A stretch of DNA of 64,000 nucleotides, from NCBI GenBank assembly GCA_951406725.2, contig OX597818.1, positions 17,732,001 through 17,796,000 of the forward strand, written 5' to 3'. The notes beneath the pieces were generated by a model. It ran no database searches. It was not told the origin of the DNA and saw only the letters and a program-made list of their open reading frames with translations. Numbering within the stretch: position 1 is the stretch's first letter; every line of letters begins with the position of its first letter. A program made the position numbers and the translations under genes. Origin of the DNA: Octopus vulgaris. Taxonomy: Eukaryota. Of this stretch, positions 204-59,453 are shown in pieces.

Positions 204-417
204 CTAAAATTCATTAATGTTTTCAGAATTTGAACTGAGTTCAAACTCTTGAACAACTGGAATCCAGAAATTTTTAAGAGAATAGTCAGCTTCTTTAAGA
301 ATTCCACTATCAACTTCATGCTTCAGGAAATCTAACCAGTTTCTCTGTTCTGTCTTCAAACCAAATTCTCCAAGGGCTATTAGGATTCTGGTGATTCTCA
401 AGAAATTATGATGTCTT
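204..417 (-). CDS. OGFR: OGFr-like copy 1, last coding exon ((E)[19 protein letters not shown]...NINEF*)
   Basis: Acceptor tttctag at 418-424; [14 protein letters not shown] motif; stop TAG at 204-206. Confidence 0.92.
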
Positions 418-3400
418 CTAGAAATAAACCAAATAATGAAAGTTTATTAAATTATGAAAATATAAAAAGTACACTTCAGTTTCAAATACAAAACAAATAG
501 GATGTTGTCATCATCATCGTTGTTGCCCTTATTGTTGTCAATCCTCATCATCATCATTTTAACATGCACTTTTCTATGTTTGTAAATGGGTCAGATGAGG
601 TCTATTGAGGTAGATTTTCTATGGCTGGATGTCCTTCCTGTCACTAACTGTCACTTTTCTCCAAGTAAGGTAATATTTTCCCTCGTGACCACAGAATATT
701 GAAAATGAATAACATTTAATTACAACATTCATACAATATCAAGACAAAGAGGCACAAATACTTTCTCTCCCTCTATTTCTATCTCTCTCTATATATATAT
801 AAATATGTATGTGTATATATATATATATATATATATATATATAACTTATAAATGTGCTCATGACTTAGTGTTTGCTTCTTCCATGGGTATGAGTAAGTAT
901 CTCATTTACTTCTTTGCCACATGTATCACTGACGAAGGGAGGGTTCTTTTTTAACTAACCCTGAAATCGGTCCGATATGGTAATAATGGAATTTTTTAGA
1001 GATTTCTGTCGGCCTTTTTACAAGTACCGTGCGTACTGGGGAAAAAAATTATATGGTAAATGGACAATATGTCCAATTTTTGGTATATTTGGCATTAGAA
1101 ATTTTTTCATTTGCCCTTATTTATAAGTTGTTTATAATTTAACCTTTAAAGGTATTTTTTAATATGCTCGCCATTGATAGAATTTTTTTTCCGAAAAAAT
1201 TTTATCCTACATTAGATATATATATATATATATATATATATATATATATATATATAATAGAAATATTAAAATTACTAAGTCTCTCTAAAAGAGAACAGCG
1301 GCAGCATTCCCGGAAAATAATAGTTATCGCCATACTAATATGGCATTCTTATAAAAATAAGAATAAAGCTGTCCGCTTATTAGCTCCATGAGGCCATCGC
1401 CTTAAGTTAGCTATTTGATACACAAACTGTATCCATATAACCTTTGAACAAGGGAGGTCAGTCGCTCCACACTACTTGACCGGCAGCTACAGATGCGTTT
1501 CGGGGTATTGCCCCTTTTCAATGCAGCGTAGCCAGACCAGTAGGTGTCGCTTCTGACAATCTCTGTTCGAAGGTTTTATTTATATATCCCTCCCTTCCTT
1601 CTAAGAAGTATTGGATACCCTAAAAAAGGATCATGGCTGTTGCACTTCATCCTCTGACAAAACATTTAATAATAAAAAAATTTTTGCAACAAGATGTTAA
1701 ACTCACAATCAATTATTCCCCTCATGGGGTTAAAATAGAGGTTTTCAAACATAGAACAATGAGACTAAGAAGAGGTAGAAAAAATAAAGTAGTAAACATA
1801 AATGGCAATTACAATTTATAACAACTGTTTCGTTAGAATTTTATCTGAAGTAGTCATAAAAGATTACATTGTAATATATAATCCACTATCATCAGTAAAA
1901 GAGTAAACGAGTAGTTGTACAACAGGTTCAGCGAAAGAAACCACTAGAATAAGTAGCAGACTTAGAAATTAAGTACAAGGGTTGATTTGTTCAAGTAAAT
2001 CTCCTCAAGACGTTGCTCCAGTATGGCTGGAGTCCAATGACTGAAACAAGCAAACATTAAAAGATAACATATTTCCTGAATAACTTACTCTTTCAGATTT
2101 TTGATTCTATCCCTGTAAGAATGTGATAAAGCAAACTGGCAGTCATCATTCATAGACATGCCATAAAAATCCAGCATCAAATGAAAGCTCCTTTTCACTC
2201 TATCTCTTAAGACGTCATCTTTAGATATCTCCTGAAATGTATTAAAAATACTAATACTGGTTAAAGATTTAACAGAGAAGAGTTTCAGTTTCAGTGGCAG
2301 TATTTCTTAACATTCTGACTAACAATGATGGTAATAATAATAATAATAATAATAATAATAATAATAATAATAATAATAATAATAATAATAATCTGTATAT
2401 ATATAAGACAAGATGTGTGTGCATGTGTGTGTGTGTGTGTACGTGATTGTAGTTTATGCACATCCACAAATTAGCATGCATGTCACTCAAATTTTAGGAG
2501 GACATTCGTCAACATCCTATCTGGGTTTTGTCAACTTATTTTTTTCCCAAGGCACCCGTGGATAGCGGTAAAATTCTATTTTCAACCGTAGCTTTTAGCC
2601 ATAAAACATATCAGCCATAGCTTTTTGACAGCATCTAACAAAAAAAATAATACGATAAAGAAAAGTGGAAGAGGGACAGAAAGTTTCACGGGAAAGACAA
2701 AGTGAGAGAGGGAGAAAGAGTAAGTGACGACATTCATAAAAATCTATTTTCAGCCATTGCTTTTTGACATCGTCTAACAAAAAAAAATAAGATAAAGAAA
2801 AGTGGAAGAAGGAGGCAGAGAGATTCACGGGAAAGACAAAGTGAGAGAGGGAGAGTGAGAGAGTAAGTGACGACGTTCATAAAAAATATAATGTAAAATG
2901 TTTTGTTTTTTCTTAAACATGAGATATAGTGTTCAAATTCAGAATATTTTTGAAAGACACTATATTTTATAATCATAGTATATATACTTTCTCACACAAC
3001 AATTACAATATATTTATTTTAAATCATTTATTCATTTTAAATCGTACATCTTTCTCTCCCCCTCCTCTCTCACACACATTACTTTGGGTGCGAAAGAGTT
3101 TTGTTTTAATTTTACGCCGAGTAAAAAAGGTTTTGTTGAGAATCCATGTATTTAACAACAAAGAAACAAAGAGGTGAGTAACAATTTGTCAGTGAATTGC
3201 AAAATATAAATGGGTATAATTTACGAGGCTTCCACCACACCCCACTCCATTTCATGGACCACAAAAAGGGTTTTGTAGCATATTAGGATTACAGAGTAGT
3301 TGATTCCATGCAAAAAAAAACAATTTTTTCTCTTAGTGAAAATCTACAAATTTAACAACATTGTTTCCATTCATTTCTGTTTATGAACATGTATGCATGC

Positions 3401-58400: not shown

Positions 58401-59453
58401 TTCTTTCCCATCAATCCTTTCTGTCAAAGACTTTTCCATTCTTCCCTAGCATCAAACTAATACACCTGCTTGGTCCTCCCTCAGCTGCCTTTGTCTTTTG
58501 TTTTCTGTACATTTGAATTAAATGTATACATACATATAAAGTATATTACTAATACACACACACACACACACACACACACACACACACACACACATACATA
58601 CATACATACATACATACATACATACATACATACATATATAGTCAGTCAGTGGAAGGACTTCCCTACCTCATATGTTCTTAAAATTTAAATCTACATCTTT
58701 GTCTGTATATCTACCTTCACAATAATGTTGCCACTTGATTTGAAAATTTTTGTATTAATGGAAAACCTCTATAATTGGTTGATGAATACTCAGCATCTTA
58801 AAGCTGTTGTAATACTTACAACATTTAATAAAACGATGTAGTACGAAACGATCGTACCAAATTACAGGAGTCATTCTTGTTGCTTATTTTGAATATATAT
58901 ATATATATATATATATATATTTATGCACATACACACACATTCATACATACATGCATACATATGTTCGTACATGCATGCACATATATTTGCATTTAATGAC
59001 CTCACTACTGCTGATGATATGATAAAATACATCCAGTCCACTCTGTAAAGTGACTGGTACTAGGGAGGGCATCCAGCCAAACAAACTACACCAAAGTTGA
59101 GACATGAGAGCATGATGTAGTCCTTTGACCAATCAAGAAAGGAAGCAGCTCTAAATGAAAAATAGCCTGGACTGCCTGTTCAACCAATGCCATCATGGAA
59201 AGGTAGGTGTAAATATGATGACTGATGATTGGTGGTGAGTGACGATGATTGCAGCAATGGGAACAAAGAGGGTGACAATAAAGATGAAGGCCAACAGTGA
59301 TAGTGATTTCCCTAAAATCCATCCACCGTTGCAGCTGGGAAGTTAAAACAATAAAGCAAGATCAAAATACTCACCACTGGATATAGCCATGATGACGTTC
59401 CAGCTTCTCATAATCACCAAACCAATTTTCTAGAATATCTTCTATATAATCAC
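49256..59453 (-). CDS. OGFR: OGFr-family gene copy 2 (5'-partial): exons 59375-59453, 55000-55066, 52592-52734, 49256-49439
   Basis: Same internal exon sizes (79, 67, 143), phases and motifs as copy 1; open frame. Confidence 0.9.
50038..50121 (-). ncRNA. Hammerhead-like motif in last intron of copy 2
   Basis: ttat-CTGATGA-tggtgg...ctact-GAAAC-ATTT-GTC-ataa. Confidence 0.55.
50865..52487. mobile_element. Non-autonomous TIR DNA transposon with nested repeats
   Basis: 67-bp imperfect TIRs at 50865-50931 and 52421-52487 starting CACAATT. Confidence 0.7.
52592..52734 (-). CDS. OGFR: OGFr-like copy 2 exon ([47 protein letters not shown])
   Basis: 143 bp, paralog of 2089-2231. Confidence 0.92.
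52833..53059. repeat. Compound (AAT)n(CAC/CAT)n microsatellite
   Basis: Direct observation. Confidence 0.95.
54192..54316 (+). ncRNA. Hammerhead-like motif with expanded stem II inside an inverted-repeat element (54007-54329)
   Basis: CTGATGA-agatcag...ctgatca-GAAAC-AGCT-GTT. Confidence 0.45.
54573..54874 (+). mobile_element. Non-autonomous Helitron-like element (related copy 63667-64000, minus)
   Basis: 3' hairpin + CTAG; near-identical body in the two copies. Confidence 0.7.
55000..55066 (-). CDS. OGFR: OGFr-like copy 2 exon ((W)LFPNKVTGLNRHAFRLNDYEIQ)
   Basis: 67 bp, paralog of 7596-7662. Confidence 0.92.
56020..56303 (-). mobile_element. CR1 LINE 3' end
   Basis: TLRVAEAWNKLPASVVS..S..SFK; (TTA)n tail. 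Confidence 0.65.
57920..58140. mobile_element. piggyBac-like MITE
   Basis: TTAA-CCCTTTAG...CTAAAGGG-TTAA. Confidence 0.8.
58775..58860 (+). ncRNA. Type I hammerhead-like motif with long stem II
   Basis: ttgg-TTGATGA-atact...(tgttgtaa/ttacaaca hairpin)...agtac-GAAAC-GATC-GTA-ccaa. Confidence 0.6.
59375..59453 (-). CDS. OGFR: OGFr-like copy 2 exon ((G)[26 protein letters not shown])
   Basis: 79 bp, paralog of 16360-16438. Confidence 0.93.

Follow-up and report, generated by a model that had tools for sequence, protein, structure and literature searches.

Two genes with an OGFr_N domain lie in tandem on this stretch of Octopus vulgaris DNA, and most of the codons at which they differ change the protein. 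The locus raises the question of what separates the two copies, and whether their differences reflect adaptive diversification. With a confidence only a little above even, we hold that A and B are intact tandem OGFr_N genes which keep their core residues and whose main difference lies at the N-terminus, in what would be targeting modules. On this reading, gene conversion probably moves patches between the copies, and the products are likely cytosolic proteins, tethered to a membrane, that would bind or process ADP-ribose.

Two spliced OGFr_N genes on the minus strand

The window (the whole stretch of DNA analysed, 64,000 nt) carries on its minus strand two intact, spliced OGFr_N genes, designated A and B. 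Shared between them are exons of 79, 67 and 143 nt plus the last exon, all with identical phases and, in both copies, with intact AG/GT splice sites. The frames are open to stops (A ending at 49256, B at 204), and the offsets between corresponding exons are 43.0, 47.4, 50.5 and 49.0 kb. Exon models, open frames and splice sites thus bear out the preliminary description of two intact copies with the same exon phases, hidden by splicing. Its gene models were incomplete: B has three further coding exons, and the first coding exons of A, searched for in the 64,000-nt window and not found there, must lie beyond base 64000. The four exons of A match P0003, a protein named from Octopus vulgaris, exactly (P0003 residues 57-213, 100%). 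The coding features are:

59375..59453, minus strand: A shared exon a, 79 nt, with a ten-residue motif at its end
55000..55066, minus strand: A shared exon b, 67 nt, LFP at its start
52592..52734, minus strand: A shared exon c, 143 nt, MLDFYG motif
49256..49439, minus strand: A last coding exon d and stop, HNFLRITRI motif
38433..38489, minus strand: B first coding exon, 19 aa, moderately hydrophobic leader; in published transcript X2, absent from the preliminary description
25070..25759, minus strand: B exon 2, 690 nt, phase 0-0, 230 aa; in transcript X2, absent from the preliminary description
25145..25168, minus strand: polybasic run of 8 K/R inside B exon 2, kept in P0001 and P0002
21181..21283, minus strand: B exon 3, 103 nt, N..FY motif opening the OGFr_N domain; absent from the preliminary description
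16360..16438, minus strand: B shared exon a
7596..7662, minus strand: B shared exon b
2089..2231, minus strand: B shared exon c, 10 differences to A, all nonsynonymous
204..417, minus strand: B last coding exon d and stop, 10 aa longer than that of A

Family identity and conserved core

Against the Pfam OGFr_N profile (PF04664), P0003 scored 154 bits and P0001 155.5 bits, and six of the eight shared exons matched when searched singly, five of them above the 22-bit curated cut-off, which confirms the family assignment first made from the letters alone. OGFr_N domains are distributed across animals, protists, bacteria and viruses. The motifs N..FY, LE..H.YIQWLFP, ML.FYG and HN.LRI.RI are present in both copies, and the family motifs named in the preliminary description are, as claimed there, identical in A and B. 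None of the 35 positions conserved at ≥90% in 119 relatives differs between the copies, as opposed to 34 of the 121 others (p=1e-4); of the 11 deviations from the family consensus that were listed, none falls at a position reaching 90% conservation. Twenty-two residues of P0003 are shared at ≥85% by a eukaryote-rich and a mostly microbial alignment.

A, B and their cephalopod relatives form one cephalopod clade (support 100/96; 23 rows), and cuttlefish has three copies of its own. Together with a third O. vulgaris paralog listed in Table S2 of PMC12919962, this agrees with the lineage-specific family proposed earlier. Among the matches listed (120 of 666; 120 of 231), none named from a cephalopod was an OGFr of the ordinary Y..GYP type. 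B shares 96.2% identity with an O. sinensis protein (17 of 451 positions differ) versus 78% with A; over the shared domain the values are 96.8% to the other species' protein and 78.2% to A. The A/B duplication probably predates the split of O. vulgaris and O. sinensis. By itself such a duplication is ordinary and the OGFr_N family was already known. A search of the open-access literature found nothing on a cephalopod OGFr expansion.

Near-identical tracts between the copies

Noncoding divergence between A and B is 11.8% overall, and the introns share only patches, some tracts of which are 98-100% identical. The latter is what one would expect if A and B were uncollapsed haplotypes or an assembly duplication, but this is extremely unlikely: the background divergence is high, the N-termini differ, B is nearer to the protein of another species than to A, and 5′ ends of both the A and the B type are present in a separate, published transcriptome. 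Cross-species comparison and noncoding divergence thus reject haplotype duplication, and the copies are real paralogs, as the preliminary description had judged likely.

Beside exons a and c, divergence falls to 1.1% (6 mismatches in 543 nt versus 192 in 1629 nt elsewhere, p=4e-18), a contrast with the overall value that points to gene conversion. The homogenised tracts, given without strand, are:

59041..59408: tract 1 in A, the latter half of exon a with 334 nt of adjoining intron; partner 16026-16393
16026..16393: tract 1 in B
52486..52837: tract 2 in A, 103 nt of intron, exon c and 106 nt of intron; partner 1983-2334
1983..2334: tract 2 in B

In tract 1, the 334 intron nucleotides contain five mismatches and the coding run is identical. 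In tract 2, the flanks differ at 1 of 209 nt, versus 10 of 143 nt in the enclosed exon c (p=7e-4). In the protein sequences, A sides with B against P0002 at 10 of 16 informative residues in exons a and c versus 2 of 15 in exons b and d (p=0.009), and codons 52-54 of the shared region in a published B transcript, as judged by eye, read as the three-residue patch of A. Short DNA patches have thus likely been exchanged between A and B by gene conversion, even though the short near-identical tracts could also be a product of assembly polishing. The locus is a compact case of conversion between paralogs, of a kind that would mislead orthology and dN/dS analyses.

Codon differences and selection

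Over 156 shared codons, A and B show 34 nonsynonymous and 9 synonymous differences, a recount in agreement with the ~33 and 9 over ~155 codons given previously. When the same 53 substitutions were placed randomly, however, 36-39 nonsynonymous and 8.5-11 synonymous codons resulted, and P(syn≤9) was 0.30-0.66. That the copies diverge mainly at amino-acid sites is therefore literally true, but not beyond what chance gives. Counting gave a pairwise dN/dS of 0.97-1.44 (bootstrap 0.52-2.94). The maximum-likelihood estimate was 1.28, which does not differ significantly from 1 (p=0.52), and a value of 0.3 was rejected (p=6e-5). At variable sites dN/dS reached 1.67-1.75 (pairwise only; p=0.18 for 1.67), and none of the pairwise tests yielded a dN/dS significantly above 1 (p=0.15-0.52). 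The 34:9 count was consequently rejected as evidence of positive selection, and the adaptive diversification originally read from 33:9 is not supported, because neutral change gives the same ratio. Outside the core, residues appear to evolve near the neutral rate, and perhaps more quickly in exon c. Selection is hinted at solely by this exon, in which all 10 differences are nonsynonymous, although 0 of 10 synonymous has a chance probability of 0.05-0.10 and the exon was chosen post hoc.

Adaptive diversification in a refined form would have surface residues positively selected in a host-pathogen arms race, with selection keeping the exon c differences despite conversion on both sides. Besides the contrast between exon c and its flanks and the variable-site dN/dS, the cuttlefish copies speak for it, as does the variation of B itself (the 17 differences to its O. 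sinensis counterpart, and about 8 residues, counted by eye, to the published O. vulgaris transcripts). This possibility is nevertheless doubtful, considering that no test reached significance, that two short tracts stopping inside exon c would explain the differences equally well, and that exon c, at 7%, lies below the 11.8% background rather than above it.

Published transcripts of the two genes

Three O. vulgaris OGFR transcripts, X1, X2 and X3, are listed in Table S2 of PMC12919962 (PV164569-PV164571), so that the sequences of X2 and X3 had previously been deposited and named. X2 is gene B, spliced as modelled here, and all of B is thereby represented in the published transcriptome. X3 (c28149_g2_i3) holds the 5′ half of gene A, whose 5′ exons are thus transcribed; judged by eye, it consists of A's N-terminus and A-type exon a followed by B-type exons b-d and the B 3′ UTR. 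None of the three published transcripts contains exon b, exon d or the 3′ part of exon c in the A version. X1 is a separate paralog with core motifs that look degenerate by eye. The portions of the paper considered here give X1-X3 a single protein name and do not refer to tandem genes, conversion or the hybrid make-up of X3. Published expression is low (0.28-0.85 CPM in four columns), and the immune, venom or reproductive role suggested in the preliminary description has no direct support.

The composition of X3 would be explained if A and B were partly one modular locus, in which read-through splicing or an unequal-crossover hybrid puts the A anchor on the B domain and yields anchored and unanchored isoforms. 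Both genes are on one strand with A upstream, their splice phases agree, and homogenised tract 1 is where the junction falls. We nevertheless regard a modular locus as unlikely: the switch occurs within a 46-nt run identical in A and B, where a de novo assembler can join paralogs, and the assembly treats X2 and X3 as isoforms of a single gene.

The missing 3′ exons could also mean that A is a young pseudogene or has begun to decay under relaxed selection, with which an overall dN/dS near 1, a longer terminal branch (0.17 versus about 0.08 for B, from their nodes) and the earlier stop would be in keeping. Such decay is very unlikely, given that neither a stop nor a frameshift interrupts A although the background has diverged by about 12%, that its splice sites are intact and its 5′ exons transcribed, and that the core is unchanged. 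Neither copy looks like a pseudogene, because the 35 family-conserved positions do not differ and B in full and A in its 5′ half are represented in the transcriptome.

N-terminal modules

Residues 2-26 of the A product are predicted to form a transmembrane helix, followed by a Cys and basic residues; the exon encoding it lies outside the window, and its sequence was taken from P0003 and transcript X3. The AlphaFold model has a helix at 2-26 (mean pLDDT 92.6), and hydropathy is 3.8 for P0003, the copy A product, versus only 1.5 for the leader of B. With such a helix, the OGFr_N domain of A would face the cytosol. The weaker leader of B, together with the 230-aa spacer and its polybasic run, would place the domain elsewhere than that of A. 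The spacer encoded by B exon 2 is rich in Q, K, E and T with a degenerate 9-residue (27-nt) period; it had no Pfam match, and an ESM Atlas search with the repeat exon gave no usable match (best 0.76). Its polybasic run seems to resemble a nuclear-localisation signal or a membrane-binding patch.

A hydrophobic 19-mer was found in five of nine scored cephalopod-clade proteins versus 3 of 159 other relatives, an MG start in none of the nine versus 62 of 159, and the Y..GYP-type motif before the domain (a D...Y..GYP-type segment) in none of the nine versus 126 of 159, counts whose p-values overstate independence since the clade members are related. A predicted transmembrane helix also opens the proteins of the cuttlefish-side relatives in this clade; among its members, P0004 and P0131 lack an anchor. 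Microbial OGFr_N members likewise do not contain the Y..GYP-type segment, which is therefore not defining for the Pfam family. Both A and B end 5-15 residues after the domain, with no long C-terminal tail.

Structure searches and nearest known systems

OGFr_N has no agreed biochemistry. A PDB sequence search gave nothing significant and no solved OGFr_N structure, and the four PDB structure searches with two models, by Foldseek (nothing at E≤0.001) and VIA, gave no clear match. Against BFVD, the only Foldseek match was a Marseillevirus OGFr, and the ESM Atlas searched with the OGFr_N domain gave no usable match outside PF04664. One candidate, DUF1810/Rv1873 (PF08837, PDB 2jek), has in common with OGFr_N a W.FP motif followed by a helical pair, but not the HN.LRI.R motif, and its function is likewise unassigned. 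With hhalign, E values for DUF1810 were 0.022 and 0.1 at a probability of 2% or less (5-sequence alignment). Whole-domain matches to Rv1873 (Z 6.0, rmsd 4.3, 123 aligned; Z 6.8, rmsd 3.9, 131 aligned of 140) were tied in Z-score with unrelated, generic helical repeats. A search of 10 genomes or records with OGFr loci detected no DUF1810. Rv1873 is also named in the HHpred column of PMC12919962.

Vertebrate OGFR and OGFRL1 have the same domain and motifs as A and B, and OGFR carries C-terminal repeats and a nuclear-localisation signal. The octopus proteins, by contrast, stop shortly after the domain and have neither the Y..GYP-type motif nor the MG start; A carries a predicted transmembrane helix and B an N-terminal exon of 9-residue repeats. 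N-terminal membrane targeting may be shared in kind with vertebrate OGFRL1, the human protein being listed as myristoylated (PMC12955691).

A possible link to ADP-ribose

In seven of 25 viral loci examined, NADAR (PF08719), PARP, Macro (PF01661) or NUDIX domains were fused to OGFr_N or encoded nearby, a raw count from a scan of chosen neighbours that includes two probably related loci of similar gene order (L021 and L024) and one weak NADAR match (E 3e-4). One RNA-virus-like replicase has OGFr_N between methyltransferase and helicase, a slot in which Macro domains are usual. In bacteria, one fusion of microbial PARG (PF10021) with OGFr was seen, such a link occurring in only 1 of 39 loci (78 of 107 listed ORFs scanned). 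Four viral fusions point instead to ubiquitin (OTU, weak; UCH; UBA twice). The viral neighbours and fusions suggest that the OGFr_N domain may handle ADP-ribose. The NADAR, Macro and PARG Pfam families gave no match at E≤1 for P0001-P0003 or the exons, and the VIA structure searches returned no Z≥8 and no NADAR, Macro or PARG chain among the top 50, a cut-off below which such a match may lie. On the sequence evidence, OGFr_N would thus at most work like these domains rather than being a demonstrable member of their families.

Tentatively, and with confidence somewhat short of even, the conserved residues E75, H78, Q82, W83, H156, N157, R160 and R163 (P0003 numbering) are put forward as a putative site for ADP-ribose or an NAD derivative, not for an opioid peptide. 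Opioid precursors are reported missing from the O. vulgaris transcriptome (PMC12919962), which argues against Met-enkephalin (OGF) as ligand. The product of copy A, a 213-aa anchor-plus-domain protein from such an animal, is therefore a clean test object for the domain without its namesake ligand. Nothing linking OGFr to ADP-ribose was found in the open-access literature. Quite unlikely, on present evidence, is the far-reaching version in which OGFr_N would be a hitherto unrecognised ADP-ribose-processing enzyme family in virus-host conflict and the coleoid genes a membrane-anchored, repeatedly duplicated defence module, with tandem copies shuffling anchors and catalytic domains by conversion and read-through splicing, and with a surface diversified by selection.

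If true, the ADP-ribose reading would bear on human OGFRL1; tankyrase is a PARP. The function of OGFRL1 is described as largely unknown, and knockout mice show no cherubism-like phenotype (PMC11062026). Loss of OGFRL1 was found in two families with recessive cherubism, a disease usually caused by lost tankyrase-dependent turnover of SH3BP2 (PMC11062026).

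Two spliced OGFr_N genes in the window

The DNA of the window is AT-rich, full of microsatellites and animal. It carries, on the minus strand, two genes with an OGFr_N domain (copies A and B), which share four exons (a to d) of the same lengths and phases, bounded by AG/GT splice sites. The two spliced, same-phase copies of the preliminary description were thus borne out: the four exons of copy A correspond at 100% to a database protein of 213 aa named from Octopus vulgaris (P0003), and copy B is matched by an O. sinensis protein (P0001). The proposed family identity was likewise confirmed, as Pfam OGFr_N scored 154-159 bits for P0001-P0003 and also matched six of the eight single shared exons. 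Three additional coding exons of copy B, missed in that description, have an open frame and match P0001.

Exons of copies A and B
59453-59375, minus, copy A exon a
55066-55000, minus, copy A exon b
52734-52592, minus, copy A exon c
49439-49256, minus, copy A exon d
38489-38433, minus, copy B additional exon
25759-25070, minus, copy B additional exon
21283-21181, minus, copy B additional exon
16438-16360, minus, copy B exon a
7662-7596, minus, copy B exon b
2231-2089, minus, copy B exon c
417-204, minus, copy B exon d

Both copies belong to OGFr_N but, beyond domain membership, do not have the architecture of vertebrate OGFR or OGFRL1. Databases already contain the gene products under automatically assigned names; in open-access searches, no literature came up on their tandem arrangement, on conversion between them, on the cephalopod anchor or on a role involving ADP-ribose. 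Tandem duplication by itself is ordinary; the switch between anchor and repeat, the mosaic of conversion and the transcript joining A to B, all described below, are real leads. OGFr duplication recurs in molluscs: the oyster Crassostrea virginica has a protein (P0123) in which two OGFr_N domains follow each other, and two paralogs of the mussel Potamilus streckersoni (P0021, P0055) bear nearly consecutive locus tags.

Different N-termini of the two copies

The full model of copy B is an open 450-aa frame (434/451 identical to P0001). Its exon 2, a phase 0-0 cassette, encodes 230 Q/K/E/T-rich residues with a periodicity of 9 residues/27 nt (lag-9 z=4.9), eight consecutive basic residues among them; a Pfam search gave no match for it. 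Among the proteins compared, this repeat exon was present only in copy B, P0001 and the relative P0002.

No upstream exons of copy A were found within the 64-kb window. P0003 starts with a strongly hydrophobic 19-mer (score 3.8), residues 2-26 being modelled as a helix, after which come Cys and Lys. A tree of 23 rows placed A, B, P0001, P0002, one Argonauta protein, three from Acanthosepion (cuttlefish) and three further proteins in one long-branch clade (support 100/96). Hydrophobic N-termini occurred in 5/9 scored clade proteins versus 3/159 outside, and a Y..GYP-type motif in 0/9 versus 126/159 (13 proteins with short N-termini were left out of the scoring). Because octopod as well as cuttlefish members have it, the predicted membrane anchor is probably ancestral for coleoids. 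An MG start was found in 62/159 relatives outside the clade, and PMC12955691 lists human OGFRL1 among myristoylated proteins; the OGFr family thus seems to be aimed at membranes by several routes.

Divergence of the copies

The preliminary description had counted ~33 amino-acid-changing versus 9 synonymous differences and read them as adaptive diversification. The recount agreed (of 156 codons, 34 differ nonsynonymously and 9 synonymously), but does not support that reading. Nonsynonymous sites make up about four-fifths of the coding sites, so that a ratio of 34:9 is what neutral change would be expected to give; the same 53 substitutions placed at random gave 36-39 nonsynonymous and 8.5-11 synonymous codons. 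By counting, dN/dS was 0.97-1.44, varying with transition bias and with bootstrap ranges spanning 1, and a pairwise codon model gave 1.28 (p=0.52 against 1). The ratio was consequently rejected as evidence of selection. Nonsynonymous-site divergence (11-12%) equalled that of aligned noncoding DNA (192/1629 sites, 11.8%). A whole-gene dN/dS of 0.3 was rejected as well (p=6e-5). The changes are not spread at random: differences fell on 0/35 positions conserved at ≥90% in 119 relatives versus 34/121 others (p=1e-4), and under this split the dN/dS of the variable class was 1.67 (p=0.18). Thus, purifying selection acts on the core, and residues outside it change at about the neutral rate.

Probable gene conversion and a hybrid transcript

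Identity between the copies is patchy along the locus. In the intron beside exons a and c (334 bases after exon a; 103 and 106 either side of exon c), 6/543 bases differed (1.1%) versus 11.8% elsewhere (p=4e-18). This points to gene conversion between the copies, though such near-identical tracts may also stem from assembly polishing. The protein residues agree with conversion tracts in the DNA: of the informative residues, 10/16 in exons a and c placed A with B against P0002, compared with 2/15 for exons b plus d (p=0.009). The tree pairs A with P0002 (96/88), although P0002 has the repeat exon of B. Within exon c, inside homogenised tract 2 (A 52486-52837, B 1983-2334), 10/143 bases differed, all nonsynonymously, versus 1/209 in the flanks (p=7e-4). 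No other pattern hints as strongly at selection, but it was picked out post hoc, the probability of no synonymous change among 10 arising by chance is 0.05-0.10, and two short conversion tracts stopping within the exon would give the same result. An ATT microsatellite lies at the upstream end of this tract in both copies (52845-53059; 2332-2406), in A running on as a long GAT/GGT repeat.

PMC12919962 lists three O. vulgaris OGFR transcripts, at low levels (0.28-0.85 CPM). X2 corresponds to gene B: in the 400 residues compared, the segments encoded by all seven exons follow one another as predicted. X3 joins A's transmembrane N-terminus and A-type exon a to B-type exons b-d and B's 3′ UTR. It could reflect read-through splicing of A into B, since A lies upstream on the same strand and phases fit; it could also be the product of a hybrid allele, or an assembly chimera across a 46-nt run identical between A and B. 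Compared by eye, the transcripts and the window's copy B disagree at ~8 residues, three of which are A's patch at codons 52-54, adjoining tract 2. X1 (c28032_g1_i1 in Table S2) is a third, distant paralog from outside the window, with a Cys-rich N-terminus; its core motifs (H..YIQW, HN.LRI.R) appear degenerate by eye, making it a candidate inactive partner. In bobtail squid, a preprint reports an ogfr transcript raised by warming and by CO2 (10.1101/2024.10.31.621237).

Conserved domain and a possible link to ADP-ribose

The octopus domain was confidently predicted to fold into an all-helical body bearing a small hairpin (pLDDT 92.6); the model of a bacterial stand-alone homolog reached 95.8. 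A sequence search of the PDB found no solved relative, and fold comparison of the models with the PDB gave no clear match. The sole recurring structural lead is Rv1873/DUF1810, a weak one (Z 6.0 and 6.8; E 0.022 by hhalign), which the HHpred column of PMC12919962 names too. Twenty-two residues, including E75, H78, Q82, W83, H156, N157, R160, T162 and R163 (P0003 numbering), are conserved from the octopus protein through to those of bacteria and phages, as would be expected of an enzyme or small-ligand site.

Among 25 of 30 viral loci (five near-duplicates omitted), seven had an ADP-ribose/NAD-related domain fused to or near OGFr_N, as a raw, uncontrolled count: NADAR (L002, L013, weakly L005), PARP with PRPP synthetase (L021, L024), Macro (L028) and NUDIX (L012). 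Ubiquitin-related fusions occurred in four of the 25. A PARG-OGFr fusion was found in 1/39 bacterial loci, the remainder being uninformative.

Viral and bacterial contexts of OGFr_N
L009:166-6270 (IMG/VR contig), 2035-aa RNA-virus-like replicase ORF with viral methyltransferase, OGFr_N (582-701), SF1 helicase and RdRP_2
L021:76-6121, L024:2539-6048, large phage-like contigs with PRPP synthetase, stand-alone OGFr_N gene and PARP close together
L002:3407-4474, L005:1007-5032, L006:4037-5695, L011:938-4942, L019:923-5065, viral OGFr_N fusions with NADAR, NADAR plus OTU (both weak), UCH, UBA
L041:1918-3513, Chlamydiae MAG protein, microbial PARG catalytic domain fused to OGFr_N

In L009, OGFr_N occupies the accessory-domain slot between methyltransferase and helicase; a similar virus may be represented, in part, by L010. 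L021 additionally has NAPRTase and a kinase/phosphatase, and a second ORF of L002 (990-1715) has an OGFr-like motif without Pfam match.

According to PMC11062026, OGFRL1 is lost in two families with recessive cherubism, a disease usually caused by lost tankyrase binding to SH3BP2, and the OGFRL1 knockout mouse is without a cherubism-like phenotype. The likeliest mechanism would be a membrane-tethered protein handling ADP-ribose, the ADP-ribose-handling step itself having, in our judgment, slightly less than an even chance of being right.

Repeats in the window

Introns and intergenic DNA contain degraded retroelement-like ORFs, by their motifs presumably reverse transcriptase- or endonuclease-like; fragments in gene B's introns are, by motifs, what we take to be mariner-, MULE- and Helitron-helicase-like. 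A many-copy interspersed repeat is probably an octopus SINE.

Repeats
26821-27768, 29100-32010, 43940-44311, 60046-61304, degraded retroelement-like ORFs
5915-6928, 14794-15542, 19420-20070, 11077-11367, DNA-transposon-like fragments
6830-7250, 28158-28540, 35903-36333, 40270-40640, 48059-48440, ~400-nt interspersed repeat, 80-89% identity
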